Below are positions 9,185 through 41,651 of a stretch of 64,000 nucleotides of DNA, piece after piece; the stretch's first letter is position 1; every line of letters starts with the position of its first letter. Source of the DNA: Botrimarina sp. (lineage in GTDB: Bacteria > Planctomycetota > Planctomycetia > Pirellulales > Lacipirellulaceae); contig OZ253585.1 in NCBI GenBank assembly GCA_965263145.1, positions 261,668 through 325,667 on the forward strand, written 5' to 3'. Both the position numbers and the translations under genes were made by a program. Below the pieces are notes generated by a model. It saw only the letters and a program-made list of their open reading frames with translations. It was not told the origin of the DNA and searched no databases.

Positions 9185-9227
9185 ATGATTTCTCTGCTTT
9201 CCCTACTTCCAGCTTTGTACTGTGGTT

Positions 9228-9770
9228 TTACTTTGAAAGTAACCTTTGCCAAAACGTTCTCTCACGCTCTTTCCTCAATGCGCGCTTGAGAACCAAGATC
9301 TCCTTCTGACGCTTATCGCGTTCCTGGTCGTAATCTTGCTTCAGGGCACTGATCTGCGACTCTGTCTGCTCGGTTACCTTAGTAATCGTTGCCTCTAAGG
9401 AGGCTTGCCAAGCATCTTCTTTGACTGATCGATCTTCCAGCAAAGGGGGAATATCAAGCGCCTTCTCCAAGGTGTTTTGAAGGTGCGAATTTGTTTTTTC
9501 TAAATGTTCGATCCGGTCTTCGTATTGAGCAATTAAACGATCCTGCATGATTTGGTTATTAGTAGGCTTTATGTTTGCTTCAATCTCATTCTCCGCCAGT
9601 TGGAAATCTGCTCCGTAGACACGCACGAGTTCGCCAGCATCCAAAACCTTACGGCCTTGTGAGTCTAGCTCATAAGACAATTTTCCATCCTTAATATGAC
9701 GCGATAAAGTGGCCCGGTTGCGATTCACTATTCGCGCTGCAGCAGAGATTGAAAATTTGGTTTGGGTCAT
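9228..9770 (-). CDS. HTH DNA-binding protein with long C-terminal coiled coil (KfrA-like architecture)
   Basis: The likely true start is the ATG at 9770 (MTQTKFSISAAARIVNRNRATLSRHIKDGKL = HTH). The rest is a heptad-rich coiled coil. The track ORF extends further upstream to 9953 without support. Confidence 0.45.
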   Translation of the reverse strand: MTQTKFSISAAARIVNRNRATLSRHIKDGKLSYELDSQGRKVLDAGELVRVYGADFQLAENEIEANIKPTNNQIMQDRLIAQYEDRIEHLEKTNSHLQNTLEKALDIPPLLEDRSVKEDAWQASLEATITKVTEQTESQISALKQDYDQERDKRQKEILVLKRALRKERERTFWQRLLSK

Positions 9771-11414: not shown

Positions 11415-11643
11415 CCTTGCCAGCCTTTCTCTAAATCAAAATCTCAAGAATCTGATATCAAACTGCCAAGCAGAGAGTAGTGCTGACCTAATCAATTGGG
11501 CAATAGGAATAATAATCTCTTCGCAACGTATGATACGCTGCTTTGGCAACCAAACCTTTCCGAATGCTTTCTCAACGTTAAGCTACTGCATCCAAGCACA
11601 AAAATGGGTCGATCAAAGTCGCAAGCTTTGGTAAGATGTCCAA

Positions 11644-13215: not shown

Positions 13216-14156
13216 GCCGCCTGAAAGAAGCACAAGTTCTACTCAAAGATTTAGGGATGCCATCTGCTCAATACAATGAGCGTTCAGCATTGACTCTGCT
13301 TGCATTGGCAGGACTTGGTCCCAAGGATAACTGGGAAGATGCTGCCCAGAATCTTCTAAGAACAGTTGATATCATGGAGTTCATCGCTGAGCATTACAAG
13401 AAAAGCTATGCGCCAAATAGCCGAGAGACTTTTCGTCGGCAGACTTTACATCAGTTTGTTCAAGCACGCATTGCCGATCACAATCCAGATGATCCATCAC
13501 GCCCAACAAACAGCGGTAACAATTGTTATGGTATCAGCGATGCAGCACTGATAGTCATTAAAACAGTGGGCACCGATGATTACAGCGAATCGGTGAAGAC
13601 ATTCCTTGCTGAACAAGGATCTCTCCAAGAGGCATATCGCAAAAAAAGAGAGCTATTGGAGGTCCCTTTGATTCTGCCTGATGGCACACAAGTAAAGTTT
13701 TCTCCAGGCAAGCATAATGAGCTTCAGGTTGCAATCATTGAAAAGATGGGGCCTCAATTTGTTCCAGGGTCACAAGTTCTGTATGTCGGTGATACAGCGA
13801 AGAAGTACGTTGTTTATGAAAAGGAATCGCTTGAAGGTCTCAATATCCCTATTACCAATCATGACAAACTCCCTGATGTCGTTCTCTATCAAGAAGAAAA
13901 TGATTGGCTGATTTTTGTTGAAGCGGTTACTTCGCATGGACCAGTCAGTCCCAAGCGATACATTGAACTTGAATCAATGTGCAAAGATTGCACCTCTGGG
14001 AGAGTTTATATTTCAGCTTTCCCCGATAGAGCTGAATTCCGCAAGTACGTTGCCGACATTGCCTGGGAAACGGAGGTCTGGATAGCCGATTCTCCAGGCC
14101 ACATGGTTCACTTCAATGGGCCAAAATTTGTTGGGCCATATGGAGAGGAGAATTGA
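13212..14156 (+). CDS. Type II restriction endonuclease partner (BsuBI/PstI-like candidate)
   Basis: Starts within ATGA overlapping the MTase stop, so it is translationally coupled. The 314-aa size and M-then-R order match PstI/BsuBI systems. No motif was confirmed by eye. Confidence 0.55.
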   Translation: MSRLKEAQVLLKDLGMPSAQYNERSALTLLALAGLGPKDNWEDAAQNLLRTVDIMEFIAEHYKKSYAPNSRETFRRQTLHQFVQARIADHNPDDPSRPTNSGNNCYGISDAALIVIKTVGTDDYSESVKTFLAEQGSLQEAYRKKRELLEVPLILPDGTQVKFSPGKHNELQVAIIEKMGPQFVPGSQVLYVGDTAKKYVVYEKESLEGLNIPITNHDKLPDVVLYQEENDWLIFVEAVTSHGPVSPKRYIELESMCKDCTSGRVYISAFPDRAEFRKYVADIAWETEVWIADSPGHMVHFNGPKFVGPYGEEN

Positions 14157-14229
14157 TTGAGTTAATCACAAGTTATTCAGAGTTGCTTTAGGTTGAGGAG
14201 CAGTCACTTACAGAAATACATGGGTACTA

Positions 14230-15207
14230 TTATGTGTAATGAGGTCTTTGTATGCACTCCAATATTTTTGAATCCAAATCTGGCAGTTCTATTTCTGTAG
14301 GAACCATAAGTTTAGGTTTTGATCCGCCTCTATGTTTCTTTAACTTCTTAAAGAGCGACTTACCTTCGACATTTATTAGCGATTCAAGGATTGCACCATA
14401 TGGCGATAAGTTTAATGTCTCGCAACCCCGTCCATTATTAGTTTCTTTGTCTACTATCTCCCACAGTTTTTCCTCAGTGAGTTCAAGTGATCTGCAAAGC
14501 TCTTGAATATTTTGTGCCAAGCGTTGTACATCGTCTGGCAAATTCTCATCTTGCCACCGCTTTTTTACAGCTTCTATCATCTTATGAAGCTTGTCGGTTC
14601 GCCAATCAGACTTAGCAATTGATTGAGAAGAGGAAAGGCTGCTTGCTTCGGCAATCGTTAATTCTGCGTTCTCTAACATAGCCTTTACTTGGTATGCGAT
14701 CCTACTACCCGGCCAATCCACGCTGTCTGATTTATAGACAACGTCATGCGTTGCGATTCCCCATGCATGCTGCAGGAAGGTCTTAATCTGCATTTCAAAA
14801 AGTAGTCCGTCGCATCCACTAGGTCTTGCTTGCCCATCACGCCAACGGACATATAAACGAAGTTCATCAAAGTCAAAATTACAAGGAAGATGCGGCGTTA
14901 TGTTTTGGGATTTTGGTTTACGAGATGCAATTTCGAACTCTTTACAAATCAGAGTTTCTGCCTTGGAAATCGAAGCCTGATTTTCAACTACCAAGCAACA
15001 AGCAAAAAGATCATCTGGTCGAGTACAATCGGTAACTCGACCTGTTTCAAGTTTTTGTGCAAAACTCTCAAGTTGCTTTAAGCGGGATTCGTAGTGCCAT
15101 CTTTTCTCTTTTATGGCTGACACTTTGGTGTCGACCATATTTTTAAGGTTATTATAGGTTGGCAAGAGTCCTGCGTGAAGGTCTCGAACAGACTTGGGCA
15201 CTTTCAT
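14230..15207 (-). CDS. RelA/SpoT-domain nucleotidyltransferase (small alarmone synthetase-like)
   Basis: LFEMQIKTFLQHAWGIATHDVVYK matches the RelA/SpoT synthetase signature (compare RelQ QIRTFAMNFWATIEHSLNYK). DLFACCLVVEN matches the D-x-GiRvi strand. It overlaps the upstream DUF262 gene by ATGA. Confidence 0.65.
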   Translation of the reverse strand: MKVPKSVRDLHAGLLPTYNNLKNMVDTKVSAIKEKRWHYESRLKQLESFAQKLETGRVTDCTRPDDLFACCLVVENQASISKAETLICKEFEIASRKPKSQNITPHLPCNFDFDELRLYVRWRDGQARPSGCDGLLFEMQIKTFLQHAWGIATHDVVYKSDSVDWPGSRIAYQVKAMLENAELTIAEASSLSSSQSIAKSDWRTDKLHKMIEAVKKRWQDENLPDDVQRLAQNIQELCRSLELTEEKLWEIVDKETNNGRGCETLNLSPYGAILESLINVEGKSLFKKLKKHRGGSKPKLMVPTEIELPDLDSKILECIQRPHYT

Positions 15208-16268
15208 GGATGCGTCTCAAAGAACTCACATAATGCCTCTAAACGTTTTTCGCGAGGTTTAAAGTCCGTACTCGCTCCACCAAACGAATCTAAGTATTTT
15301 AGAACTGGATCTTCGTCATGGTTTTGCGCATCTGAGGCTTGGTTACCTTCCTTCTTGGCAAGTGTGAATCTTGAAAGAAATTCTTCGTATATTTCAGCAA
15401 ATTGTTCTGCATCTGGTGAGTCGTCCCAATGAAGAGTCACAAAAGACCAAAGAGAATAAAAATGTGCAACCGATTTTGTACAAGCATCAATAGCTCTACC
15501 ATAATCAAACAAATCGATAATGAACTCTTTACTTCGATGAAAACACTCCTTGACAGAATCGGGATCAAACTCGTCATCTCTTTCGTCGACTAAGTCATAA
15601 TCTGAATAAAGATCATCGAGTGCATCCTGATCAAATCCTTGCTGTTCACCGTGAAGAACAACAGCTAGAAGTTCAGACATGAATTGAGCGTCCTTCATTC
15701 GTTTTGATCGTGTCTTAGTAACTAGCCCAATGTTCTCCCAATCGCTATCTTCACACTCATTCTCAATAAAATTAATCAGCCAACCATCCCACCTTGCATG
15801 CCTGAGCTCTTGTCGCTCAAGTTTTCTCATGTTTCGATTCAGCCTGTCAAACGCACGACTAACCTCTTGGGCCCCATCGTCTTCAAAAGTTAGGTGTTCG
15901 ACTGGTATAACGTAATCCCAGAATGTTGTGCGCTCATCATCTCCAAGCTCTTCCCATTTCTTGCCATTTAGACGCTGATCACCATACGCGTCATCAATAG
16001 CAATTTCACCATTTACGAACATAAAAAGGGTTTGCAGGCGCTGTTTACCGTCAACTACGGCATAGGTTGCCTTTTCTCCATCTACCATTGTCTTGTGTAA
16101 AAAAATTGGTGGACATGGATAACCTCGAAAAACAGTATCAAGGAAAAAACGCCTGTCCTTACGATTCCAAACACTTCGTCTTTGGTATGGAGGATCAAGC
16201 TCAAGCTGATCATTTCTTCGAGCATCAAGAAACCAACTAATATCTGCTGTTGAGGAACGGCGTTTCAT
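15204..16268 (-). CDS. DUF262 (ParB-like nuclease/NTPase) domain protein
   Basis: PPYQRRSVW, PPIFLH and AVVDGKQRLQTL are the hallmark DUF262 motifs (the usual DGQQRL block). At 354 aa there is no DUF1524 HNH partner domain. Confidence 0.75.
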   Translation of the reverse strand: MKRRSSTADISWFLDARRNDQLELDPPYQRRSVWNRKDRRFFLDTVFRGYPCPPIFLHKTMVDGEKATYAVVDGKQRLQTLFMFVNGEIAIDDAYGDQRLNGKKWEELGDDERTTFWDYVIPVEHLTFEDDGAQEVSRAFDRLNRNMRKLERQELRHARWDGWLINFIENECEDSDWENIGLVTKTRSKRMKDAQFMSELLAVVLHGEQQGFDQDALDDLYSDYDLVDERDDEFDPDSVKECFHRSKEFIIDLFDYGRAIDACTKSVAHFYSLWSFVTLHWDDSPDAEQFAEIYEEFLSRFTLAKKEGNQASDAQNHDEDPVLKYLDSFGGASTDFKPREKRLEALCEFFETHP

Positions 16269-22414: not shown

Positions 22415-22459
22415 CAAGCACTGCCTGACCTATGCAGCGAAATATTTACGCATCTGAAT

Positions 22460-23511
22460 GGCCTTGTCGAACAACCTTTGATTTCACTGCGTAGAAGAGC
22501 CGGTTGAGCGGAGCTCGACCTTCTTTTCTTTAGCAGACGGAGCGAAAACGATGGTTGCTAGCAAATCGAAGCAGACCAAGTCTTACCAGGTTCACAACTG
22601 GCGTGATTATAACCGATCTTTGGTCAATCGAGGTAACATCACCTTCTGGTTTAATGAAGAAGTGATCGATTCCTGGGAGCACGACAATGCTCAGAAGAAG
22701 AACGGCTGGCCGTTTACGTACAGCAATACTGCCATCGAAACGTTACTCACCTTGCGAGAACTCTTTCGGTTGCCGTATCGCCAGACCGAAGGTCTGGGCA
22801 TGGCAATAGCCAACTTAATGCACCTCAAGCTTCGGATTCCCAGTTATACGAATCTTCAGAAACGCGCAGCGAAGATGCAAGTTGATTCGAAGTCTCGACG
22901 CTCAAAGGACCGATCACGATTGTTGTCGATAGTACCGGCCTGAAAGTCTTTGGTGAGGGAGAGTGGAAGACGCGTCAACATGGCGTCGATAAGCGACGCA
23001 CTTGGCGTAAGCTCCATCTTGCCGTCGATCCCGATTCGCAAGCGATTGTTGCTCAGCTTCTAACCGGTAACGATACACACGATGGCGATGTGGTCGAGCC
23101 ACTCGTAAAACAGATTCAACCTGAAGTCGAAGGCTTTTATGGCGACGGCGCTTACGACCAACAGAAGGTCTATCAAACGCTAAGTGAGCAAGAAATCTGG
23201 ACGATCATTCCGCCTCGTAAGAATGCCAAGATTCAGCAGCATCGCAATTCGAGCAGCGATCCGCTGGATCGTGACGAATGCCTTCGGCAGATTCGTCGCG
23301 AAGGAAAGCGTGCATGGAAAGAATCAATCGGTTATCATCGACGTAGCTTAGCCGAGACGGCCATGAGCCGATTAAAAACTAACTTTGGCGGTCGGCTAAA
23401 GAATCGAAAATTGGTAAACCAAGTTACCGAGGCGGCCCTCAGGTGCAAACTGCTCAACTGGTTCGTTACCCTTGGGATGCCGCTTTCTACTTGGTGTTAG
23501 GAAACAAGGCC
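22460..23511 (+). mobile_element. IS5-family insertion sequence, IS903-like (~1052 bp)
   Basis: Imperfect terminal inverted repeats GGCCTTGTCGAACAACC (22460-) and GGCCTTGTTTCCTAACA (reverse complement, ending 23511). These resemble the IS903 IR GGCTTTGTTGAATAAATCG. The length is close to the 1057 bp of IS903. The internal DDE transposase has IS5-family similarity. No clean target-site duplication was found. Confidence 0.7.
22551..23500 (+). pseudogene. IS5/IS903-family DDE transposase split by a -1 frameshift (22551..22943 frame 0; about 22914..23500 frame 2)
   Basis: N-terminal part: MVASKSKQTKSYQVHNWRDYNRSLVNRGNITFWFNEEVIDSWEH... C-terminal part: IVVDSTGLKVFGEGEWKTRQHGVDKRRTWRKLHLAVDPDSQAIVAQLLTGNDTHDGDV...YGDGAYD. 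The combined ~316 aa approximates the single-ORF IS903 transposase (307 aa). Confidence 0.7.
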
Positions 23512-23626
23512 GAATAAAGACAATAATTATTATTATCATTCCATACTAGAGAGCCAGTCGTCACCCATTAGGAGGACTAAGGTAACAGGTATTAAAGCAG
23601 CGGATATTATTTATTTAAGGTCAGAT

Positions 23627-26095
23627 TTGGTTGGTGACGGCAGGGAGTATAAGGATTTTTCGGTGACTCCTGTTTTAGCAGAAGGAGAGACCTTGCCGGG
23701 CGAGATTCAAAAACTTGATGATGGTCATTTTCGTTTTGTTCCAGATGAAAGTTTTACCGGCGGTGTTCTTGCCTTTGATTATAGTTTCAAGTACAAGGCA
23801 TTTCATACCCACTATGGAAGTCCAAGTGTGTATACTTATGACTATGAAACATTAACCAAAAGAAGATATTTGGACTATGGTTCACATGTTTCGATCAATG
23901 TTACTCCATTGGACGAAGAGCATGAAGAGTCAAGCATCTACAGGATCAATGGTAATTGGGATGATGACAACAGCAATGGAATTGTAGATAGCTTAGAATT
24001 TAACGTTGGTGATTCAGAAGATGACTTATTCGGATTAAAGGTGGATTTGAAGGCGCTCAGTTTTATAAATACAGATCTTGTGCCAGTGTCGCTGCAATTG
24101 CATAGGTCAGATGGCTTGTCTCCACATTTGCGTCTATGGAAAGATAGCAGTAAGAGTGAGCCTGTTTTGACGGGAATGTATAAATACGATGAATTTCCTA
24201 GAGTTATATATGTTGAGGTTCTCTCGCGTCATTTGACCGACCCTACTTCGGTGGTAATTCAAACGCACCCTAGTAGAGGTTCAGTTAAGGGTGAATATTC
24301 AGCCCTGTTATCCGTAGCTGATTCGGAAAGTAGTTTTACAAGATTCGAAACAGACTGGATGAACTATGGAATACCTCATCAGAAGCTCATAGATCTAGAC
24401 ATTGACAGTGATAATGATGGCCAGATCGGTGTTACTGAAGAAGAGAGAGAGTGGGAGGAGGAGCTTGAAGATAGTGAGTATGCCTTCGGCAAAATATTGT
24501 ATCCGACCTACACACCAGCGTATGATGGTGAAACTACTCAAACCCCACTACCTGTTCTCACACAGTTCACGCCAATGAATTTAAATCTACCTGCTGGATT
24601 AAGTGATGATTACAGAATAAAGTTTGATTACGCCATGGATGCAACAAGTGCGGGTCAAATAAAGCTATGGACTAAAATGCCTCTGACGCAAACTTACAAC
24701 CCTAACAACCCCAGTGCCTCGGGGCGTGATGGCTTGCTTGTCAGTGACTCTATTACTTCTGGTGTTAGCTATTCCCTTGATGATATCGGCTATAATGCTA
24801 CATCTGGTGCTGCCATGGTATACATAGACGGCATTAGTCCAACAAATATAAATACACTTAAACAGCTTGACGAGAATGGTAGCCCAAGCAAAAAAATCAC
24901 TGCGACTCTTACGAACCAAGATACAGGGATCTCTAGCAAAGATAGTGTTAAATACCTAGTTGTAAGGACGGACTCCCAGGTACCAAACCACCCTAAGAAT
25001 ATTTTGCATCAAATAGAATTCCGTGAAGACTTAAGTGCTGCACTATCTTCAAACGGTGTTTATGGGCGTGGGGAAGACCAATTCAAAAGCGTGCCTGAAG
25101 ACTTACCGAATTACGGCCTTAGGTTAGTTTCACGTGAAGAACTGCAAGAGTGGGGGCTTAATGCTGCTCAAGTGCAAGCGTTTAATTCTAGTAACGGAGG
25201 TGGTTCAGGGCTAAAGATGGCTCTTTATCAGGATTACACACGTGGGCCACGAGATTATATTCTTGCATTCGCTGGCACTGACTTCGAAACACCAAAGGAT
25301 TGGGTAAGCAATATATTGAATGGTATTAGGCAGCTATCTCCTCAATACGTGTATGCGGTGGGAGCTGCTAACAAACTATTTAAGGTGAATACACCCTCCG
25401 AGGGGGTAATAGGTAAGTACTTTGATTCAATCCAGTTTGCAGGGCATTCACTTGGAGGTGGATTGGCAAGCGCAGCGTCAGTATGGACAGGCGGTAAAGC
25501 ATACACCTTCAATGCGGCTGGTCTGCATATACAAACCATTAAGAACTTGCAGTACCACTACAAGTTTATGGAGACAGGCAGCTTTGACGAATATGAAAAT
25601 CAGCTATCGAGATATGCTCAAGCAGGCGATTACATCACCGCATATTATAATGAGAGCGACATCCTTTCGACATTACAAGATGGTATTACTATATTACCAT
25701 CTGCAATTGGTACGCGAGAAATATTAGCAGACCCATATTCTGGTGATGTAACCAACTCGCTTGACAATGATTTAGACATTCGATTGGCAAAGGGACTATT
25801 GATTAGTAAGCTAAACCAATCGCTGTTAAGAATAGACCCCGATAGAATATTCATTATTGATGTTGAAAGACTTTATGAAGAAAGCAAGTCATATGCTGCA
25901 TTTTACATCATGAATTATCTTATCAATGAGTTCGAAAATAATATATTCGATGTAGGGCATCCAGATGAATATGCTGGATTTGTAAAGATGATAGAGAACC
26001 ACGGAATGTACCTGTATGGCCTGCTAGATCCACAGTATTTTGGCGTTGGTAATGAAAATATATGGGGTTATGGCTTTGGTGAGGATGATGAGTAA
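23627..26095 (+). CDS. Large class-3-lipase (alpha/beta hydrolase) domain protein with an unknown ~550-aa N-terminal region. Candidate lipase/phospholipase toxin.
   Basis: DYILAFAGTDFETPKDWVSNILNGIRQ followed by FAGHSLGGGLASAASV (GHSLGG nucleophile elbow) is typical of the Lipase_3 family. The ORF begins with TTG, not ATG. It has no signal peptide, and the frame stays open back to 23519, right at the IS right end. Confidence 0.6.
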   Translation: MVGDGREYKDFSVTPVLAEGETLPGEIQKLDDGHFRFVPDESFTGGVLAFDYSFKYKAFHTHYGSPSVYTYDYETLTKRRYLDYGSHVSINVTPLDEEHEESSIYRINGNWDDDNSNGIVDSLEFNVGDSEDDLFGLKVDLKALSFINTDLVPVSLQLHRSDGLSPHLRLWKDSSKSEPVLTGMYKYDEFPRVIYVEVLSRHLTDPTSVVIQTHPSRGSVKGEYSALLSVADSESSFTRFETDWMNYGIPHQKLIDLDIDSDNDGQIGVTEEEREWEEELEDSEYAFGKILYPTYTPAYDGETTQTPLPVLTQFTPMNLNLPAGLSDDYRIKFDYAMDATSAGQIKLWTKMPLTQTYNPNNPSASGRDGLLVSDSITSGVSYSLDDIGYNATSGAAMVYIDGISPTNINTLKQLDENGSPSKKITATLTNQDTGISSKDSVKYLVVRTDSQVPNHPKNILHQIEFREDLSAALSSNGVYGRGEDQFKSVPEDLPNYGLRLVSREELQEWGLNAAQVQAFNSSNGGGSGLKMALYQDYTRGPRDYILAFAGTDFETPKDWVSNILNGIRQLSPQYVYAVGAANKLFKVNTPSEGVIGKYFDSIQFAGHSLGGGLASAASVWTGGKAYTFNAAGLHIQTIKNLQYHYKFMETGSFDEYENQLSRYAQAGDYITAYYNESDILSTLQDGITILPSAIGTREILADPYSGDVTNSLDNDLDIRLAKGLLISKLNQSLLRIDPDRIFIIDVERLYEESKSYAAFYIMNYLINEFENNIFDVGHPDEYAGFVKMIENHGMYLYGLLDPQYFGVGNENIWGYGFGEDDE

Positions 26096-27120
26096 TGAGA
26101 ATTAAGCCTAAATTCGCATTGAGTAAGTTTGTACCTGGAATCAAAATAGCCATGCTAGAGATAGCAGTTGTTCTGTCAGGAATATTGCTCAGCGGTATAT
26201 CACTTGGCCAAACTTCACAGTATCTCAGCTCTAGCAAGTGGCAGGTTACCTACCCGATTGACCTACGTAAGCACTCAGGTTTGAAAGAATCGCATAAATC
26301 TGTCACGCAAGGTGGAGCTATTATTGCTGAATCGATTTTATCAAAGCACTGGCATGACAGGACAATTATTACTCTAAAGCAACGAGTTGATATTACTAAA
26401 GCATGGGATGTTGACTATTTTTTTACGTCTAAAAAAGAAGCGATGCTATGTAGAGCAGTGAGTCGGAGAGATGTAACTGAAATGGAACGTCTCATTGCTC
26501 AGGGAGCAGACGTCAATTTCATTGGCAAAGAGGGGATGACTTTACTTTACTGGTCATTTTTTATAACCGATGATCCAAGACCTTTTCATTGTCTTCTAAA
26601 ACATGGAGCAAATCCAAATGTCATCTGTAGGTTGGATAGAGATAGATGGTTATCAAATACATATGCAAATGAAGCAGTAGTGCACTTGGTTTCACTGGGA
26701 GTTTACAATCGGTTGTTTAAGGAAGTTTTCCAGTCCGGCGGAGATCCAAATCTACCATGTGAGAATGAATTCGAATATAAGAAGAATTCCCCATTATTTT
26801 TAATCAATCCACTGACTCCAGATTGTGCTGAGAGGCTAGAAGTGCTGTTGGCTGCAGGTGCAGACCTAAAGCAAAAAAACAAGCAGAATAATTTAGGTTT
26901 TTGCTATCGCATGCTTGTAAGCAGGAATGAGATTGGATATAAGACCGCTCTGCTTGCTTACAAGAATGGTGCAGATACTGATGAACTATTGCCTTACAAG
27001 AAACAAAAGATGAAGGCATTCGATATTCTTACATCGCCAGGATTTGAGAATGACCCAGAATCCATGGCCGAAGAAAGCTATTATCACCAGCTGATGGAAT
27101 ATCTTGACAGTCGCTACTAG
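26095..27120 (+). CDS. Ankyrin-repeat protein with N-terminal signal/TM anchor. Candidate periplasmic immunity protein.
   Basis: ATGA overlap with the lipase gene stop. N-terminal hydrophobic IAMLEIAVVLSGILLSGISLG. Ankyrin consensus blocks: ERLIAQGADVNFIGKEGMTLLYWS, LLKHGANPNV, LLAAGADLKQKN and LAYKNGADTD. Confidence 0.7.
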   Translation: MRIKPKFALSKFVPGIKIAMLEIAVVLSGILLSGISLGQTSQYLSSSKWQVTYPIDLRKHSGLKESHKSVTQGGAIIAESILSKHWHDRTIITLKQRVDITKAWDVDYFFTSKKEAMLCRAVSRRDVTEMERLIAQGADVNFIGKEGMTLLYWSFFITDDPRPFHCLLKHGANPNVICRLDRDRWLSNTYANEAVVHLVSLGVYNRLFKEVFQSGGDPNLPCENEFEYKKNSPLFLINPLTPDCAERLEVLLAAGADLKQKNKQNNLGFCYRMLVSRNEIGYKTALLAYKNGADTDELLPYKKQKMKAFDILTSPGFENDPESMAEESYYHQLMEYLDSRY

Positions 27121-27357
27121 AGGTTTAATAGCAGCCACATAACCAAAAAATTAGAGTGGTATCGCCACAGACTTAACACTCTGAGGGTGGACTCGGTTGA
27201 AGGAGGTTGACCAGCACCATGGTAGGCCTGCTAGTCTGACTTTGACTTATTGATTATATTTTCAGGGTGACCATATAGGTGACCGGCTAGCAAGAGAAGC
27301 TGGCGAGACTGTTAGCTGGGGGTCGTTAAGTCACAGCTAAGAAAGACTTTAAGGAAG

Positions 27358-27430
<73 letters not shown>

Positions 27431-27638
27431 TATTGAGAAGTACGACATTGTATCGTTATGCCTAGGTTCACTTCTAGCCCTTATCTTTCGCCGTTTTTGT
27501 GGTTAGGCCGTAGTGTGATTGCTTGATCTTTGGTCCTGCACAAGCACTTCATCAAAGCCCTTTCTATTTGTCTACTGGCAAGGCTGGTAGGGTATACTGC
27601 TGCTTGTTTCGATTTGCCTTTAGCACATGGTCAGATAG

Positions 27639-29363
27639 ATGAGATTTCTATTCACCCCCGCCCTGTTCTTGTTGTTGATTTTGGTTTCGGTTGCCAACGC
27701 ACAAGCTGTTGCGAGCGGTTCTAAGTATGCTGTTGCAACGGTCCACCCTGCTGCCACTCAGGCTGCCGAAGAGGTTTTCAAAGAAGGGGGCAATGCAATT
27801 GATGCCGCAGTGGCTGCGGCTTTAACGCTTAGTGTTGTCGATAATCAAAATTCAGGTATCGGTGGTGGGTGTCTTGCTTTGGTTCGTAAGTCGAGCGGTG
27901 AGTTGCTCGCTATCGATGGTCGTGAGATGGCCCCAGCCGCAGCGCATCGTGATATGTATCTTGTAGACGGTAAGGCTGATCCGCAGCTTAGCCAAACGGG
28001 CCCTCTTGCTGTTGGGGTGCCAGGAGCATTGGCGGCCTATCAAGAGTTGCTAAATCAAGCGGGTACAATGCCAATGGCTCGTTTGCTTGCTCCAGGTGAG
28101 AAGCTTGCTCGTCATGGTAGTCGTATCAATTGGGAGTATGCTCAAAGGCTTCAAGGAGTGCAAAGCAAGGTAGCGAAGTTCCCTGCAACAAAGGCGGTTC
28201 TTTTCAATTCGAATGGAAAACCAAAGCAGGAAGGTGACCTTCTTGTTCAAGCGGATCTTGCCGAGACGCATAAAGCGATTGCAGAGAATGGAATCGATTG
28301 GTTTTATCGAGGACCGTTTGCGGAGAAGGTAGGCAATTGGATGCAAGAGAATGGTGGTATTCTTACTGCCAGCGACTTTGCAAATTACCAGGTTAAAATG
28401 CGACAGCCGATCCGTACAACTTATCGTGGCTACCAAATCGTAGGATTCCCGCCGCCAAGTTCCGGTGGTATTCATGTCGCTCAAGTTCTCAATTTGCTAG
28501 AACCATATGATCTAGAAAAGATACTCAAGGATGATGCTGTGCTCGGGTATCACCTCATTGCCGAGGCAATGAAAATTGCTTTCGCAGACCGGGCACACTG
28601 GCTTGGCGACACTGATTACGTGAAGGTACCTCGTGGTTTGATCAGTAAAGCCTATGCCAACAAGCTAAGGGAACAACTAGATCCCGATGCCGCATCGAAA
28701 GTCGCTTCGTACTCCACTCCAGATAACTGGTCGGGTGATTGTTTTGGACAACATACGACCCATATTGCGACGTCCGATGCGGAGGGTAACTGGGTTGCTA
28801 TCACAGCCACGGTAAACACCACATTCGGATCGTGCGTTATTGTTCCAGGGACCGGCGTTGTGTTGAACAACGAGATGGATGACTTTTCCATTCAACCTGG
28901 AACACCAAACGCCTTTGGCTTAGTTGGCGCAGAGAACAACGCGATTGAGCCGGGCAAGCGTCCCCTCTCTAGCATGAGTCCAACGATCATTCTTGATCCA
29001 GACGGCAAGCCAATTATGACAGTTGGCGCGGCAGGCGGCCCTAAGATTATCACCCAAGTGATACTTGCAATCATTCGCCACCTCGATCAAAAGATGTCCA
29101 TTGAACAAGCGGTCGCAGCACCACGCATCCACCATCAATGGCGCCCTGCTCGTCTTGGTGTTGAGATCGCAAAGTCATCAGCAAGAGAAGATCGACATGC
29201 GGTTTCAATCGATGGCATAATTCGCCAAGGGCTACTTGAACGTGGACATGCAATCTACCGTTTACCTGCCGCCGGGGTGACTCAAGCAATTGTCGTTGAC
29301 GGGGCGGGCAAGCTAAGAGCAGCCCATGACCCAAGAGTCCCAGGTAAAGCTTGGGCTGAGTAA
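27639..29363 (+). CDS. ggt: Gamma-glutamyltranspeptidase
   Basis: Signal peptide. The autocatalytic Thr block GQHTTHIATSDAEGNWVAITATVNTTFGS and the C-terminal GGxxGG region are typical of the GGT family. Size is 574 aa. Confidence 0.9.
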   Translation: MRFLFTPALFLLLILVSVANAQAVASGSKYAVATVHPAATQAAEEVFKEGGNAIDAAVAAALTLSVVDNQNSGIGGGCLALVRKSSGELLAIDGREMAPAAAHRDMYLVDGKADPQLSQTGPLAVGVPGALAAYQELLNQAGTMPMARLLAPGEKLARHGSRINWEYAQRLQGVQSKVAKFPATKAVLFNSNGKPKQEGDLLVQADLAETHKAIAENGIDWFYRGPFAEKVGNWMQENGGILTASDFANYQVKMRQPIRTTYRGYQIVGFPPPSSGGIHVAQVLNLLEPYDLEKILKDDAVLGYHLIAEAMKIAFADRAHWLGDTDYVKVPRGLISKAYANKLREQLDPDAASKVASYSTPDNWSGDCFGQHTTHIATSDAEGNWVAITATVNTTFGSCVIVPGTGVVLNNEMDDFSIQPGTPNAFGLVGAENNAIEPGKRPLSSMSPTIILDPDGKPIMTVGAAGGPKIITQVILAIIRHLDQKMSIEQAVAAPRIHHQWRPARLGVEIAKSSAREDRHAVSIDGIIRQGLLERGHAIYRLPAAGVTQAIVVDGAGKLRAAHDPRVPGKAWAE

Positions 29364-29731: not shown

Positions 29732-31291
29732 CTATAAGTCCCCAAGGGTCGTGTGCGCAAAATCCAAAAACAGGCGATCATGATTGCATGGCAGCATGCC
29801 TGTTTCTACGTCGAATGCAATCAGCTGTTTAGTGTATCCTAGTAAAGCGACAAGCTCAGAAGGGTCTGTGATATCTACTTCAGGCATCTCATCTTTCTTG
29901 CGAATTGCGTTCATACCGAGTAGAGTCTCTTCAAATGATTTGCTATTGACGATCACCTCTTTTAGGTCATTGAAAGCCGTTTCTAGGTTTAACCCTTCAA
30001 GTTTCCATGCTACCCACATTTCTGCTTGAGGAGATAGCCGTTGGCGATTTGCTTGAATGTGCTCTCTGCCTTTTTCACCAAGCTGATCAAACATTAATTT
30101 AGTTGTTTCAATCGAGATAGATTCAGAACCTTTGTCGATGATTGGGATAATTGTATTTGCATCTTCTTCACTGGCATGTTCGGTTAAAATTTCAATTGCC
30201 ATTCTGGAGGATCGATCCGATTCTATATGCTGAACAATGCGTTCAACGGCTGTCTCTGGTTGTAATCTTGCTATCGCTTTTAGAGCGTAAAGGCGACTTG
30301 TGAGATCTCTAGCGTTGATATGTATGTCTTCAAGTATATCTAGCGAATCCTCGTCTGCTGTCCTCGTAAGGGCGTGTGCCAGTGATTGCTCGTAGCGCTC
30401 ATTGGGATAATTTAGCGTGTGGGCATGCAGTGCTTTTCCGATGGGAACTGATACTTTAGGATCCGGGTTCTCTAGTAGTACCTTTAATGGGAAAGTTAGC
30501 CATGCGCTGTGTGATTCTTGTGTTGGATCGAACAGGAAAGGCAGCATAACTTCCACGGATTTTGGTTTCGTGGCTACTTTTAGGAGTTGCTCACAGACTG
30601 TAGAAGGATCGTCAAAGTAGTCATCTTCAATAAGCTTGATCAACTTTTCTTCAGTACCTGATAACTGTTTATTTGTTGCTAATTTTATTGCTTCTAATCG
30701 GACAGATTTATCGGAGTCTACGAGCATATTTAGGATGGTTTCAGTACGTCCATCGTTGTTGAAGTCAATCTCTATAAACCAGTCACCTAACATCTTAAGA
30801 GATTGGAGTCTTGTTTCACTGTCTTTTGATTCTAGGGCAGTGAATAGGTACTCTTCCCCCGAAGTGTCGCCGAGCTGAATTAGTGCATGGGCAGCCCTGG
30901 CCTTAGCTGTGATGGTGCGTTTCTTATCTCGAAGAATGGCTTGAAGAGTTTCTTTACTTCTCTGTTTTTGTTGTTCCAAAGCCCAGAGGTGCTCCAGGTA
31001 TATGTCTTCACCATTATTGATAGTAATAAGTGCTTGCCTCTGCAGAGTAGCAACCTCTTCTTCATAAAGAGCTATTGCTTTGGTAATTTCTTTCGGATCT
31101 TTTATTGCAGTTAGATTACTAAAGTTATCACTCGTGTCGCTCCGATTGGCAGTATCTAATGCACCTGAAGTTTCATTGATAGAGTTTGACTCTGATTCAT
31201 TTGAGAGTACATCTGTTGGATCGCTTTGGGGGAAACATCCGATAGCGAAAATTAGAGTGATCAAGATGATGAATGAAGGATATATCGCCAT
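29732..31291 (-). CDS. Secreted helical-repeat (HEAT/ARM-like) protein, hypothetical
   Basis: N-terminal signal peptide (MAIYPSFIILITLIFAIGCF). Repeated leucine-rich helical segments. Confidence 0.45.
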   Translation of the reverse strand: MAIYPSFIILITLIFAIGCFPQSDPTDVLSNESESNSINETSGALDTANRSDTSDNFSNLTAIKDPKEITKAIALYEEEVATLQRQALITINNGEDIYLEHLWALEQQKQRSKETLQAILRDKKRTITAKARAAHALIQLGDTSGEEYLFTALESKDSETRLQSLKMLGDWFIEIDFNNDGRTETILNMLVDSDKSVRLEAIKLATNKQLSGTEEKLIKLIEDDYFDDPSTVCEQLLKVATKPKSVEVMLPFLFDPTQESHSAWLTFPLKVLLENPDPKVSVPIGKALHAHTLNYPNERYEQSLAHALTRTADEDSLDILEDIHINARDLTSRLYALKAIARLQPETAVERIVQHIESDRSSRMAIEILTEHASEEDANTIIPIIDKGSESISIETTKLMFDQLGEKGREHIQANRQRLSPQAEMWVAWKLEGLNLETAFNDLKEVIVNSKSFEETLLGMNAIRKKDEMPEVDITDPSELVALLGYTKQLIAFDVETGMLPCNHDRLFLDFAHTTLGDL

Positions 31292-33075: not shown

Positions 33076-33294
33076 GTGATCTGTCTTCACTTTCGTTAGA
33101 GTCCATGCACGGAACACACTACGCCAACTGCCTGGGGCAGGACGCAGGGCGCCGCTGGCCCAGCGATTTCAAATCTTGCTTGTAGTTCGTCATAAATCCG
33201 CCGGCTAGGAGTTGAATCTACCCTGCTCGTTGGAGCGGTTGGTTCAAAGCCACTTGGGCGCGCCAATGTCCAGTCGATGCGTCGATTTCTTTAG

Positions 33295-33368
33295 TAGCAC
33301 GAAAGGGATTCGAACCCCTATCCACCAAGGTTTGAGCTTGGTCGCTCTGCCTGTTGGCGTACCGTGCC
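33295..33368 (-). tRNA. tRNA, anticodon CAA, class I (short variable loop). Identity uncertain.
   Basis: GGCACGG-TA-CGCC-AACAGGCAG-AGCG-A-CCAAG-CTCAAAC-CTTGG-TGGAT-AGGGG-TTCGAAT-CCCTT-TCGTGCT-A. All stems pair, with G-U at 1-72 and 7-66 and a 3-bp D stem. Anticodon loop CTCAAAC. Confidence 0.55.
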
Positions 33369-33386
33369 AATAAATTATTTCATAAG

Positions 33387-33461
33387 CGTCCCTGATGGGA
33401 TTTGAACCCACGATCTCCTGCGTGACAGGCAGGCGAGCACTCCAGGCTGCTCCACAAGGAC
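33387..33461 (-). tRNA. tRNA-Asp (anticodon GTC)
   Basis: GTCCTTG-TG-GAGC-AGCCTGGAGT-GCTC-G-CCTGC-CTGTCAC-GCAGG-AGATC-GTGGG-TTCAAAT-CCCAT-CAGGGAC-G. The anticodon arm is identical to the E. coli tRNA-Asp arm. Confidence 0.85.
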
Positions 33462-33474
33462 TAAGTTCTACTAG

Positions 33475-33548
33475 TACCCAGGGCAGGATTCGAACCTGCA
33501 AACACCTGATTCTAAGTCAGGTCGCTCAGCCAGTTGGCGTACCTGGGC
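33475..33548 (-). tRNA. tRNA, anticodon TAG, class I. Identity uncertain.
   Basis: GCCCAGG-TA-CGCC-AACTGGCTG-AGCG-A-CCTGA-CTTAGAA-TCAGG-TGTTT-GCAGG-TTCGAAT-CCTGC-CCTGGGT-A. Shares the D-arm sequence with the CAA tRNA. Confidence 0.55.
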
Positions 33549-33667
33549 GTGATGGAATTTGTATTGAGTTAGGGTGGCTGGATTCGAACGATCGAGATCT
33601 CCCGATTCCAAAGCATAAGCTCTATTATTAGTGTTAGGGGGTCCAAGCTATCCTACGCTCTGTTTAG

Positions 33668-33738
33668 TGCGCCCAGCCGGAATCGAACCGACACACCCTG
33701 CATGGCAAGCAGGGAGGCTGCCACTACATCATGAGCGC
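33668..33738 (-). tRNA. tRNA-Gly (anticodon GCC)-like, with irregular D arm
   Basis: Acceptor GCGCTCA/TGGGCGC pairs. Anticodon arm CCTGC-TTGCCAT-GCAGG matches the Gly-GCC loop. T arm GTCGG-TTCGATT-CCGGC. The D-arm region ATGTAGTGGCAGCCTC does not pair cleanly. Confidence 0.5.
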
Positions 33739-34122: not shown

Positions 34123-37100
34123 CTATCGCAGATTACCTGCCAAGCAGGCCAATGCGGTAACAAGCATAAGAGCACTCGTTGGTTCAGGTATAGCAACCGA
34201 GGCGGAGGCTTGAATCTGGGTTCCATAATTGGCGGACCATAGATTGTAGTCATCTTGATCTACAACTCCATCAAGGTTGGCATCAGCAGCCAAAGTGATT
34301 CCCGTTTGACCTAGTTCATCTCGCCAGATGGTATAGTCAGCAGCATCAACACTACCATCGTTGTTGAAGTCGCCCATAAGGGTGACCGAGATTTCACCTG
34401 TTGTTAATAACTCGGAAGTGTTCCAAGTTAGCCCAGCTGACAGAGCAGGTAACTGAACTGAATCAAAACTACCTGTAACCGTCGCGAAATCGAGAAGATC
34501 GAAGCTATCACCTGCCTCTGGGGTAAACGATTGGCTTAAGCTAATTGTCAGAGAACCCCCGTCGAGAGTGACATCGCCTTGTACTTCGAGCTTGTCACTG
34601 TTGGCATCGCTGTAGATGTCTAGCTCAAGTGCTGCACCTACCTCGTGCAAGTAGTCTCCTGCGACAAGAATGAAAGCGGGGGACACTAATTGCTCCGTAA
34701 CAACGCTCCCATCAAAAGTAATTCTGGTAGTTACATCCAAGAAGCCATCCGCTTCGTCGCTAAGTACGAGATTATCGATGTGTCCACCCGAATAAACATG
34801 TAATGACCAAAGCTGAATGCCTGCCGTGCCATCATCTTCATCAAAGTCACGGTCATTTAGTAGGTAACTCATATCGGCGCTAGATGACAGACCAGCTTCT
34901 CCAAGACTGACATCCGGGTTAACCCACCATTCGAGTGTATCGTTACCTGTTGCTAAGCTTAATTTACCAACGATAAGCTGAACATCATTGGTGCTTGCAG
35001 TGCTTGGTGAAAAATTACTTAGGTCGTTTGGATTACCGTCAACGAAGAAATCGAGCGTTGCTCCTTGATCTCTTAGCAAAAAGCGATTGTCAAAAATGTT
35101 GCCGTGACCATCAATGTTGATTCCAGCACGACCGCCAGCATCTACTTGTGCCAAGAAGGAAAACCAAACATCTCCATTCAAATCGGTTTGGATAGAACGT
35201 TCGACAGAAGATGCGCCACCAGAAAGTCGTGCCAAATGCTGGCCGTCGCCATCCTGAGTCAGGCCGTAGTTTGTACTTGCTGGGGCAACAAGATCGCCAC
35301 TTACGACATTGATTGTGCCGCCTGAACCGGCGTTCTCCTCTGTATAGGAACTTGACCAGCCAGTACCACCATCCTGTCCCGTAACAACGCCAAGATCGAG
35401 ATCATTGAAGTTTGCAACAACAGGGCCTGATACAGATACAAATTCAGAAGCGACATTAATGGTAGATCCTGAACGAGCAGTTAAGTTACCAAGGATGACG
35501 CCGACACCTTCAACTTTTGAGCCTGTCTGAGATTCGATATCAGCTGCAATAATTTGAGGAAGGGTTTGATTAGCAATAGCTGTTGGTGTGTTAGGCATAC
35601 TTCTCAACTGGAAGGTTTCGCCATTGGCAACAGTCTTTAGGGCGTGAGAGGCAATTCCAAGGTTATTGACTCGGTGTGCTTGGATGTCTTGGTGCACAGC
35701 CCGAAAAGCTTGATAAGCATTACGGTCTTGTCCAACGGTTGCAGCGAGGTTGTTTAATTCCCAAATGTCATTCTGAGTGTCGTAAATCTCGACATAGGCA
35801 GGCAACTCGTCCGATTCATCATCGTAAGTATAGAAAACCTCATAGCGTCCATCGTAACCAGCTAGGATTGGCTTGTTGCCTGCGAAGGTTGATTCCCAGA
35901 TTTCGACGATGTTCGTATTGCGTACCCCAGCACCGTTGCCATTGTCGCTAAACAAGTTCTTGATGCTACTGCCTTGCATGGCTTGAGGGATTTGCGCTCC
36001 AGCGATATCTAAGATTGTGGGTGCAATGTCGACGTTTGAAACTTGACGATCATCCGTACGGCCGGTGTCAACACCAGGACCCATCACCATGAAAGGTACT
36101 CGGGCTGCTTGGTCAAACGGTAGCGACTTACTTGTCATGCCGTGGTCACCAATCATCCATCCGTTATCCGACATGAAGAAGACGTAAGTGTTGTCGATAA
36201 GCATGTGCCCTGGATTACGCGGGTCAGCGGTTGTATTGAGCTTGTCAATTAAGGGAGTTAGCATGTCGTCAAGCTCAGTGATGACGGCATAGTATTCACT
36301 TGTGTGGTCAGCTAGTTCATTGGGATCACCATAGAGATACCGGTTGTCGTTCTGAGCCAGCGTTCGGTTACGAATGTTCTCGTAGTAAGCAGGTTTGTTC
36401 TCTAGGTTGTCGTCCCAGTTACCTGGCAAGTTGTTTACATTGTTGGGAGCATCATAGAAATCAGTCGCATCGTACTTCGCCAAGTTTTCAGGCAACGCAT
36501 CCCAAGCCAAGTTGCCATTTAGGTGAGGTGTTTGGGTGTTGTGCCAGAGAAAGAAAGGCTTGTCAGCGGAGAGAGATTGATCGATGAAGTCAGCCGAGCG
36601 ATCAGCCGCATAGGCATCAATATGTTGGTTGCCAGGTTTAGCTGGGGCATTCGGATCGGAAATGTCTCGATAGTTGCGATAGTAGCTACCATTGCTGTTG
36701 TAAGTTGCGTAGTAATCGAACCCTAAGGCTTGTTGATCAAGTGCATTTCCTAAGTGCCATTTGCCTGTTACGCCGGTCGCGTAGCCTGCGTTTTGAAGTT
36801 CGACACCCAACCGTGGCGAATTGGCGTTAACGCTGTCGCCAAGATTCTCAACACCATTGGTTTGATTGAATTGACCGGTAGTAATTGTCGCACGGGATGG
36901 ACTACAAACAGGTAAGGCAGCACGTGCTTGAGTAAAGCGAACCCCTTGCTGCGCAATCATATCCATGGTTGATGTTTGGATAATGGAATTGCCGTTGGCA
37001 GCCAGTGCGTTGTACTGCTGGTCGTCAGTAAAGATGAAAACAATATTAGGCTGTTGGGCTAATGCCGACTGAGCACATACGAATAACAAGCCTGTGATTA

Positions 37101-37134
37101 AACAACGTAACATGGGATGCCTTTTCAATATCAA
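34123..37134 (-). CDS. Sulfatase (N-terminal) fused to a long beta-rich region with dockerin-like repeat and C-terminal PEP-CTERM anchor
   Basis: Signal peptide. Sulfatase signature PVCSPSRATITTGQ (C-x-P-x-R) and GKWHLG. Near the C-terminus DFNNDGSVDAADYTIWRDELGQ...DANLDGVVDQDDYNLW (dockerin-like). Terminal IPEPTSALMLVTALACLAGNLR is a PEP-CTERM. Confidence 0.8.
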   Translation of the reverse strand: MILKRHPMLRCLITGLLFVCAQSALAQQPNIVFIFTDDQQYNALAANGNSIIQTSTMDMIAQQGVRFTQARAALPVCSPSRATITTGQFNQTNGVENLGDSVNANSPRLGVELQNAGYATGVTGKWHLGNALDQQALGFDYYATYNSNGSYYRNYRDISDPNAPAKPGNQHIDAYAADRSADFIDQSLSADKPFFLWHNTQTPHLNGNLAWDALPENLAKYDATDFYDAPNNVNNLPGNWDDNLENKPAYYENIRNRTLAQNDNRYLYGDPNELADHTSEYYAVITELDDMLTPLIDKLNTTADPRNPGHMLIDNTYVFFMSDNGWMIGDHGMTSKSLPFDQAARVPFMVMGPGVDTGRTDDRQVSNVDIAPTILDIAGAQIPQAMQGSSIKNLFSDNGNGAGVRNTNIVEIWESTFAGNKPILAGYDGRYEVFYTYDDESDELPAYVEIYDTQNDIWELNNLAATVGQDRNAYQAFRAVHQDIQAHRVNNLGIASHALKTVANGETFQLRSMPNTPTAIANQTLPQIIAADIESQTGSKVEGVGVILGNLTARSGSTINVASEFVSVSGPVVANFNDLDLGVVTGQDGGTGWSSSYTEENAGSGGTINVVSGDLVAPASTNYGLTQDGDGQHLARLSGGASSVERSIQTDLNGDVWFSFLAQVDAGGRAGINIDGHGNIFDNRFLLRDQGATLDFFVDGNPNDLSNFSPSTASTNDVQLIVGKLSLATGNDTLEWWVNPDVSLGEAGLSSSADMSYLLNDRDFDEDDGTAGIQLWSLHVYSGGHIDNLVLSDEADGFLDVTTRITFDGSVVTEQLVSPAFILVAGDYLHEVGAALELDIYSDANSDKLEVQGDVTLDGGSLTISLSQSFTPEAGDSFDLLDFATVTGSFDSVQLPALSAGLTWNTSELLTTGEISVTLMGDFNNDGSVDAADYTIWRDELGQTGITLAADANLDGVVDQDDYNLWSANYGTQIQASASVAIPEPTSALMLVTALACLAGNLR

Positions 37135-37242
37135 AACAGTTGTTCGATAGGTAGAATTGGTTTTTATATAGGTATTTTAAAAGAAACCACCATCAATCTC
37201 TAACGATTGATGGTGGTTTTAAATTCTTTCAGCAAAAAATAT

Positions 37243-38010
37243 TTAACGACGACGATAAGCGAATGCAGCAGCACCCATAAATGCAATCATAAGAGTTGAT
37301 GGCTCAGGGATAGCCGTTAGCGACACGTTATCAAAAGTCGCTGAACCATGGGAACTCCCACGATTAAACCGGACGGTACTGACAGTCTCTCCCGCTGTAT
37401 CTGGAGTATTTTGGTAAATTGCCAAACCGGTGAAAGTCTCATTCACAGAACCACCTACCACGCTCAAGTCGTAAGTGGGGGTTGCGGTGCCGAAGCCTGA
37501 ACCCGTAATAGTAAAGGTATAAGCTGTCTCGGTAGCGAGGATTAATTCGGTTGCAGGGCCAGATGGATCTAGGTTCTGCCAGCTACCACCACCAAACAAC
37601 TGGAAGGCACCGCCAATATCTTCATTTCCGCTAACTCGCATGTTAATGAATGGAGTGGCATTACCTTGGCGGACGTGTGTGTTCATCATCCGTTGGGTTG
37701 GAATAGTGCTGAACGGACGCAACCAATCAAAAGAGAATACGAAGTCGGATAGGGAATCGCCAACCGTTTGCTGTACATTTCCAGATGAACCTGCCACGCG
37801 TAGACTTTCGCTACCGCTGATGACTTGATTCTGAGCGGTGCCCGATTCTTGGCTAGCTACACCGCCAGAAACGGTCCATCCGTTTGGGAATGTGCCTGTT
37901 GTGTCTTCAAAATCACCATTTGTGATAAGACTCGCATGAGCAGCAGAGCAGCTCACGAAAACTGCAACAGCCGCACAGGCTGTGAGTAGATTGAGAAATT
38001 TACGATGCAT
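37243..38010 (-). CDS. Secreted PEP-CTERM protein (255 aa)
   Basis: Signal peptide MHRKFLNLLTACAAVAVFVSCSAAHA. C-terminal TAIPEPSTLMIAFMGAAAFAYRRR. Confidence 0.6.
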   Translation of the reverse strand: MHRKFLNLLTACAAVAVFVSCSAAHASLITNGDFEDTTGTFPNGWTVSGGVASQESGTAQNQVISGSESLRVAGSSGNVQQTVGDSLSDFVFSFDWLRPFSTIPTQRMMNTHVRQGNATPFINMRVSGNEDIGGAFQLFGGGSWQNLDPSGPATELILATETAYTFTITGSGFGTATPTYDLSVVGGSVNETFTGLAIYQNTPDTAGETVSTVRFNRGSSHGSATFDNVSLTAIPEPSTLMIAFMGAAAFAYRRR

Positions 38011-38151
38011 TAGTACTTCTCCAAGGTGTCAAGTAAAGAGGATGGATGAGATTCACCGTGGTTAATGCATTGGGGAAAAAGGCATTAGCAAAACCACTAA
38101 CTGTTAAGCACTCAAATGAAGTGGCTCTGAGTGAAAAAATATATTTTTTTA

Positions 38152-41580: not shown

Positions 41581-41651
41581 TCTAGTTAGTCAATCAGTGG
41601 ATGGTTTAGCTGCTTGCAGGCGGCCTCTTCCCTGCGTGCAACGAAAATAGG

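Follow-up and report, generated by a model that had tools for sequence, protein, structure and literature searches.

The 64,000-nucleotide stretch of Botrimarina sp. DNA analyzed here (contig OZ253585.1, positions 261,668 to 325,667; referred to below as the window) very probably carries a decayed polymorphic toxin/immunity cassette, in which the gene for a Tle6-like lipase toxin has been reduced to a stump truncated at an insertion sequence (IS), the immunity gene next to it is intact, and the toxin can no longer be delivered. Toxin/immunity pairs of this kind are already known; the carrier of the toxin is new and apparently independent of type VI secretion (T6SS). The locus consists of the following parts:

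22460 to 23511, plus strand: IS5-family insertion sequence of ~1,052 bp (ends ±1 nt; sequence GGCCTTGTCGAACAACC...), located precisely where the toxin gene is truncated
22551 to 23500, plus strand: transposase of this element in two overlapping frames (orfA 22551-22943; orfB frame open from ~22885 to the TAG at 23498-23500)
23512 to 26095, plus strand: 3' remnant of the giant lipase toxin gene, 860 codons and the stop, placed by tblastn with the protein of the intact allele
26095 to 27120, plus strand: intact gene of the putative ankyrin-repeat immunity protein, 341 amino acids

The truncation is demonstrated directly by a comparison with a sister strain in which the same gene is complete. A 284-kb contig of that strain (ENA ERZ26696107 contig_37, hereafter L087) was located via the protein P0009, which follows the full-length toxin there and is 98% identical to the ankyrin protein of the window, and positions 23511-29363 of the window align with L087 7360-13213 at 98.7% nucleotide identity. 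Upstream of the ankyrin gene, L087 contains a gene of 7.5 kb (2457-9944) that encodes 2,495 amino acids and runs uninterrupted across the position that the IS occupies in the window (...EKIISNKDNNYYYHSILES... / ...GAEKIISNKDNNYYYHSILESQSSPIRRTKVTG...). In a tblastn comparison of this protein with the window, residues 1636-2495 match 23513-26092 at 99.5% identity, and residues 1-1635 match nowhere in the 64 kb. Homology starts at the end of the IS, at ~codon 1636, which bears out the suggestion of the initial annotation that the toxin gene might be truncated at its 5' end, and the ~1,635 N-terminal codons, with every export and delivery domain, are absent from the window copy. The remnant differs from L087 at 12 of 2,583 nucleotides (8 synonymous and 4 non-synonymous) and has acquired no stops or frameshifts relative to it, and with so few differences and no disabling mutation, the loss can be regarded as recent. 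The DNA left of the IS, with a ThuA gene and two genes for GMC oxidoreductases, has no counterpart in L087. Nucleotide divergence from L087 is 0.46% in the toxin remnant and 1.46% in the immunity gene versus 2.38% in the gamma-glutamyltranspeptidase gene downstream (27639-29363), and the lower divergence of the cassette than of this housekeeping gene hints at a recent exchange of the cassette between strains.

Three elements can be recognized in the part of the L087 protein that is missing from the window. A LEPR-8K motif at residues 37-53 (18.2 bits against an NCBIfam cutoff of 17) belongs to the LEPR-XLL type, described as "planctomycete extracellular," and six other planctomycete relatives likewise carry LE[PA]R-type motifs N-terminally. 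The L087 protein further matches HemolysinCabind (RTX repeats; 42 bits) and the lectin-like domain Toxin_R_bind_N (32 bits). The intact allele would be a 2,495-residue exported protein that combines the LEPR-XLL signal, a lectin-like jelly-roll, RTX repeats, immunoglobulin-like domains, and two PAD-like beta-sandwiches with a C-terminal lipase. The layout of a polymorphic toxin, with an N-terminal export signal and repeats ahead of a C-terminal toxin, is found in the L087 protein but not in the window copy.

In the window, the remnant is read as an open reading frame (ORF) of 822 amino acids on the plus strand, from TTG 23627 to TAA 26093-26095, with GHSLGG at residues 606-611 (nt 25442-25459), in agreement with the initial annotation. 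The frame is open back to 23501, the base next to the in-frame TAG that closes the transposase gene. No ATG, GTG, or TTG is encountered between 23501 and 23627, and the first candidate start codons within the remnant are TTG 23627 and GTG 23663. A Kyte-Doolittle 19-mer scan of the 822-residue ORF finds no strongly hydrophobic segment and no signal peptide. The earlier description of a toxin ORF that has neither an ATG nor a signal peptide and stays open up to the IS is therefore correct, whereas 23519, which had been given as the start, merely lies just inside the open frame, the IS ending at 23510/23511. An ATGA overlap had also been claimed for the two genes, but their stop and start meet as GAG TAA TG AGA, an overlap of 1 nt (TAATG). 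The pair is AT-rich, as had been noted, with a GC content of 41% in the lipase ORF and 40% in the ankyrin ORF versus 47% in the entire window. The database protein P0001, encoded on a 3.8-Mb contig, is 100% identical to the lipase ORF and is annotated from GTG 23663 with 810 amino acids, and since more than 160 homologues were also found in the database, the feature is far beyond chance.

Such an ORF could be functional in itself if it were translated from an internal TTG or GTG start, perhaps with an outward promoter of the IS, into a cytoplasmic or otherwise exported protein with the PAD-like and lipase parts. This alternative is unlikely. The frame is intact with only 4 amino acid changes compared with the full-length allele, relatives of similar length (P0004, 852 amino acids, and P0007, 841 amino acids) also have no recognizable N-terminal signal, and P0001 is annotated as an 810-residue protein; however, the ORF begins midway in a longer gene, has no signal peptide or hydrophobic segment, and starts with ~100 residues that are predicted by AlphaFold2 to be disordered (predicted local distance difference test score, pLDDT, <50), and a recent truncation would explain the low divergence equally well. 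In the model, this disordered start looks as may be expected of a severed domain, and Pfam, searched at E up to 10, detects no Big_9 or cadherin-like domain at the extreme N-terminus of the ORF. As the remnant of a decayed toxin gene, lacking an export signal and an evident promoter, the stump probably makes nothing deliverable.

The element at the break is assigned to the IS5 family by its transposase ORFs (22551-22943 and 23090-23500), which match the Pfam families DDE_Tnp_1_5 (94 bits) and DDE_Tnp_1 (53 bits). The orfA and orfB frames are likely joined by a -1 frameshift, which may be programmed. The left end of the IS (22459/60) was set by a 100% match of 22459-22494 to the terminus of another IS copy in L087 (positions 36-1, in opposite orientation), and the right end (23510/11) by the onset of homology to the intact toxin gene. 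The terminal inverted repeat consists of a perfect 8/8 match, GGCCTTGT, with scattered matches only in addition. The other copy of the same IS, at L087 1-36, has the opposite orientation and precedes the intact toxin gene by ~2.4 kb; the interval contains a tyrosine integrase gene (1117-2241) as well as two small ORFs. A simple insertion of the IS into intergenic DNA next to a whole lipase gene, with the open frame ahead of it arising by chance, considered from the GGCCTTGT repeats and the GAAT on both flanks, was refuted by the comparison with L087.

Within the remnant, the following parts are distinguished in the numbering of the 822-residue ORF:

23933 to 24976, plus strand: tandem beta-sandwich module, residues ~103-450
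24989 to 26092, plus strand: Tle6-type (PF26363) alpha/beta-hydrolase lipase domain, residues ~455-822
25448 to 25450, plus strand: predicted nucleophile Ser608 (TCA) in AGHSLGGG
25658 to 25660, plus strand: predicted catalytic acid Asp678
26000 to 26002, plus strand: predicted catalytic His792, in the HGM motif shared with Tle His448

The sole significant sequence match of the lipase domain in the PDB is the T6SS lipase effector Tle of Enterobacter cloacae (7UBZ_B/9CYS), with E 8.8e-9 for the single sequence in phmmer and 7.2e-24 for a profile of eight relatives, and the match is centered on AGHSLGGGLASA...TFNAAGLH. The domain is assigned an alpha/beta-hydrolase fold that resembles those of fungal class-3 lipases and plant PLA1. 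The class-3 lipase core proposed by the initial annotation stands as far as the GHSLGG lipase is concerned, but Pfam Lipase_3 reaches only 18.4 bits, below the 22-bit cutoff, and the family given in precomputed annotation for P0001 and all homologues is PF26363, "Phospholipase-like." Searches of the lipase and the ankyrin protein against NCBIfam return sub-threshold matches only (for the lipase, the SA1320 family at 36 vs 230 bits). The likeness to Tle2 that had been suggested gives way to another group, since Tle is the only sequence relative in the PDB and is placed outside Tle1-5 in a group for which the name Tle6 is proposed (PMC11470151).

In E. cloacae Tle, the catalytic residues are Ser341, Glu393, and His448, and activity requires a glycation crosslink between Arg180 and Lys461 (PMC11470151). 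The sequence G-H-S-L-G-G is invariant in 90 aligned homologues, and its Ser608 aligns to Tle Ser341. His792 is nearly invariant in the same 90, with ENHGMYLY in the window protein and DKHGMSQV (His448) in L063, the homologue from the enterobacterium Phytobacter. Asp678 is invariant among 8 close relatives, and the motif A-Y-x4-[D/E]-x-L-x3-Q around it has the same spacing as that around the catalytic Glu of L063; BLASTP of L063 aligns this region otherwise. A manual alignment by motif spacing suggests Asp678 as the equivalent of Tle Glu393, and Ser608-Asp678-His792 is the predicted triad corresponding to Ser341/Glu393/His448. The positions His+10 and His+13 (Tle Glu458 and Lys461) are kept in L063 and are Pro and Phe in the window protein, and an equivalent of Arg180 cannot be aligned. 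The lipase domain is predicted to be a phospholipase.

The downstream protein consists of a hydrophobic helix (17-33, or 17-36 with the hydrophobicity scan), a low-confidence linker (~34-100), and an ankyrin solenoid (~105-341) in the AlphaFold2 model, with pLDDT >90 over residues 105-341. Its strongest hydrophobic 19-mer covers residues 18-36 (mean Kyte-Doolittle value 2.1), and the N-terminal helix is predicted to be a signal anchor or a signal peptide; no lipobox Cys is found in the N-terminus. The Pfam Ank match is weak. A sequence search of the PDB retrieves 7UBZ_A, which is Tli, the partner of Tle, at E 3e-6 among generic ankyrin proteins, and Foldseek with the model retrieves 7UBZ_A/9CYS_I at E 8e-6, with 7UBZ_A ranking 7th among RNase L and DARPins. 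Since the fold search cannot tell Tli from generic ankyrins, the match to Tli is taken as consistent evidence only. The signal-anchored ankyrin protein of the initial annotation was thus recovered by the hydrophobicity scan, the predicted solenoid, and the matches to Tli.

The link between lipase and ankyrin genes extends far beyond this locus. A census of lipase relatives comprised 86 loci from Planctomycetota, Proteobacteria, Bacteroidota, Myxococcota, Actinomycetota, and other groups, and linkage was counted on the 78 in which the lipase gene is followed by 400 nt of DNA or more. An ankyrin gene is adjacent to the lipase gene in 67/78 loci in many phyla: the ankyrin ORF starts no more than 400 nt from the lipase stop in 55, and in 12 further loci it either overlaps the end of the lipase gene or is found immediately upstream of it. 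Just three ankyrin ORFs clearly away from a lipase gene occur in ~0.9 Mb, and several loci contain an array of 2-4 ankyrin genes. For the Tle6 family itself, genes of ankyrin immunity proteins have been reported to accompany the lipase in every case (PMC11470151). Together with the matches to Tle and Tli, this linkage supports the lipase/ankyrin toxin-immunity pair that the initial annotation had put forward.

Fusions of this lipase domain to the delivery domains PAAR, Tox-PAAR-like, DUF4280, Hcp (TssD), or XVIPCD are found in other phyla, and their range indicates that the lipase is a mobile toxin domain serving several secretion routes. The initial annotation had suggested a classical effector-immunity pair of the T6SS, or of type VII secretion (T7SS) or contact-dependent inhibition (CDI). 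The closest characterized relative is a T6SS effector, and T6SS adaptor domains are present on many family members; nevertheless, such a pair is very unlikely here, as no PAAR, VgrG, Hcp, LXG, Rhs, or filamentous-haemagglutinin parts were found in the full-length L087 allele, which has the LEPR-XLL N-terminus and RTX repeats instead, and no secretion-system gene is present among the large ORFs of the window or beside the planctomycete homologues. Nothing links the locus to T6SS, T7SS, or CDI.

A further alternative is that the lipase is a secreted nutritional or surface enzyme and the ankyrin protein its dedicated chaperone or activator, comparable to lipase-specific foldases, so that weapon and antidote would not be involved. 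There is precedent for a helper ankyrin in E. cloacae Tli, which is itself needed to activate Tle (PMC11470151), and Planctomycetes secrete many large hydrolases, the window including sulfatases with dockerin and PEP-CTERM parts. This explanation is nonetheless quite unlikely given the fusions of the lipase domain to toxin carriers elsewhere, the arrays of 2-4 ankyrin genes at several loci, which resemble poly-immunity loci, the retention of the ankyrin gene after the deliverable lipase was lost, and the hypervariability of the toxin tail and ankyrin cassette between otherwise near-identical strains.

This hypervariability is seen in a further sister sequence, L088, which carries a divergent cassette at the same chromosomal site (lipase/ankyrin region 8986-11041). 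The lipase remnant in L088 has 47% and the ankyrin protein 56% amino acid identity to the window, and the downstream chromosomal DNA common to both has ~96% nucleotide identity. The remnant in L088 is even shorter than that in the window, corresponding to residues ~2150-2487, and borders directly on an RHS-repeat gene of the opposite strand; an rve_3 transposase is found close by. Cassette polymorphism and the keeping of immunity genes beside toxin stumps are a signature of polymorphic toxin systems (PMC3482391).

If the locus is such a decayed cassette, the intact protein would be exported via its N-terminal signal and displayed or released, and, once in the periplasm of neighboring cells, the C-terminal lipase would hydrolyze membrane phospholipids. 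The membrane-anchored or periplasmic ankyrin protein would bind and block the lipase and in this way protect the producer and its kin; by analogy with Tli of E. cloacae, it may wrap the lipase and keep it off membranes. With the IS5-family element at ~codon 1635, everything upstream, including the integrase gene and the export domains, would have been swapped for unrelated DNA, leaving an 860-codon fragment of the 3' end, presumably promoterless and without a secretion signal, together with the intact immunity gene as an "orphan" module. Expression and export of the remnant are not expected on this account. Because the stump has neither an export signal nor delivery domains and the immunity gene is intact, the strain is most likely protected from the toxin made by its relatives yet unable to deliver it.

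Several points weigh against this account. Translation of the remnant, which is intact, could still start at TTG 23627 or GTG 23663, the latter being the annotated start of P0001. The activity, toxicity, and protection ascribed to the pair in this lineage are read from sequence and by analogy. An adjacent ankyrin gene is lacking in 11/78 of the census loci, and the ankyrin fold is generic, so that likeness to Tli alone is no proof of an immunity function. At the break, the IS is flanked by GAAT at 22456-59 and again at 23512-15 in the manner of a target-site duplication, which would fit a simple insertion; yet the left flank is not toxin-gene DNA but comes from an unrelated locus. At the corresponding end of the other IS copy, L087 shows TGTT, and the GAAT on both flanks of the window element could have arisen by recombination between two IS copies or by chance.

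The tandem beta-sandwich module ahead of the lipase is conserved in planctomycete relatives only and contains acidic motifs of a Ca-binding-like kind, NWDDDNSNG (from 23957) and DLDIDSDNDG (from 24392). It has been likened here to the N-terminal immunoglobulin-like domains of PAD2/3/6, to which identity is just 10-15%, and the deiminase catalytic domain of those proteins is not present in the window protein. Candidate roles of the module are those of a spacer, Ca-dependent folding, or translocation. As a speculative extension, it is possible that Planctomycetes use a T6SS-free phospholipase of the Tle6 class as the warhead of giant LEPR-XLL/RTX proteins, that the PAD-like module (~350 amino acids) translocates it, and that remnants are retained. 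The double beta-sandwich (NxDDDNxNG ... DLDIDSDNDG ... EWEEELE) would then be an undescribed pre-toxin or translocation module for entry into the periplasm of a neighbor, and the truncated remnants may persist either as recombination stock or as "cheater" loci that confer immunity only.

The comparison affects the annotation of this genome, in which the "810/822-aa lipase" is a gene fragment and not a complete protein. It also takes the pairing of Tle6 lipases and ankyrin proteins beyond the T6SS cargo of proteobacteria, to giant secreted proteins of Planctomycetes; the interbacterial weapons of this phylum are, to our knowledge, essentially unstudied. One locus is represented by three states in sister strains: the toxin of 2,495 amino acids is intact in one and cut back to a remnant at an IS in another, and in the third a divergent allele is left as a still shorter remnant. 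These states form a natural series for how loss of the toxin with retention of immunity evolves.

Beyond the IS, the initial annotation had placed the AT-rich pair near a tRNA, and this gene was found on the far side of the immunity gene:

27357 to 27430, minus strand: tRNA-Lys(CTT) bordering the cassette, 3' end toward the immunity gene

The same tRNA-Lys arrangement is present in L087, where the tyrosine integrase gene is found at the opposite end of the toxin gene. To delimit an integrated island, an att-like repeat of the end of tRNA-Lys was sought in the window and in L087, and neither contains one. Just past the gamma-glutamyltranspeptidase gene, the segment 29363-31407 (HEAT-repeat ORF 29732-31291, minus strand) is replaced in L087 by a PcfJ-domain gene, with flanks 98.7-99.4% identical to L087, and is a second variable cassette. 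Four clustered tRNA genes (Leu-CAA, Asp-GTC, Leu-TAG, and Gly-GCC) follow at 33294-33738 on the minus strand. Typical planctomycete surface and secretome genes occupy 34123-49016, among them those for a sulfatase that ends in a dockerin-like tail, for a dockerin/PEP-CTERM protein of 1,364 amino acids and other PEP-CTERM proteins, and for a DUF1559/N-methyl pseudopilin-like protein; the dockerin-like repeats of these genes show a weak match to residues 545-595 in the full-length toxin. On the other side of the locus, at 10542-16268 in the same low-GC stretch, a defence-like cluster encodes a helix-turn-helix protein, an Eco57I/N6 methylase, a BsuBI/PstI-type restriction endonuclease, and, on the minus strand, a RelA/SpoT-like protein overlapping a GmrSD_N protein.

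Among known systems, Tle-Tli of E. cloacae (7UBZ, 9CYS) is a homologous counterpart, and Slp of Serratia marcescens has been named as a further Tle homologue (PMC11470151). The window pair shares with Tle-Tli the lipase core (AGHSLGGGLASA...TFNAAGLH, with HGM at the catalytic His), the class-3-lipase-like fold with a triad of Ser, acid, and His, and the ankyrin-repeat gene with an N-terminal export signal immediately downstream. The differences concern mainly the carrier, as Tle is a T6SS cargo of 472 amino acids, whereas the lipase here is the C-terminus of a LEPR-XLL/RTX protein of 2,495 amino acids and is preceded by two PAD-like beta-sandwiches. In addition, the catalytic acid is Glu in Tle and predicted to be Asp here, the crosslink positions Glu458/Lys461 are Pro/Phe here, the ankyrin protein has no lipobox cysteine and has a linker of ~70 residues, unlike Tli, and the toxin copy of the window is truncated. 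Effectors of the Tle2/Lipase_3 type are likewise serine lipases with GxSxG that act against membranes and have a periplasmic immunity partner, but the lipase of the window scores below the threshold of Lipase_3 (18.4 vs 22 bits) and belongs to PF26363.

Orphan modules of toxin tail and immunity gene occur at CDI and Rhs loci, where 5'-truncated toxins are kept with intact immunity genes. At those loci the modules result from displacement by a new toxin tail, whereas in the window an IS at the break causes the truncation. In the survey of polymorphic toxin systems, Imm-Ank is paired with the nuclease toxin Tox-AHH and not with a lipase, and a PAD-like pre-toxin module is not described (PMC3482391). 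The intact allele nevertheless resembles these systems in its large N-terminal export and repeat region, variable C-terminal toxin, and adjacent immunity gene, and the locus resembles them in that toxin tail and immunity gene are swapped between strains as a cassette within conserved flanks (PMC3482391).

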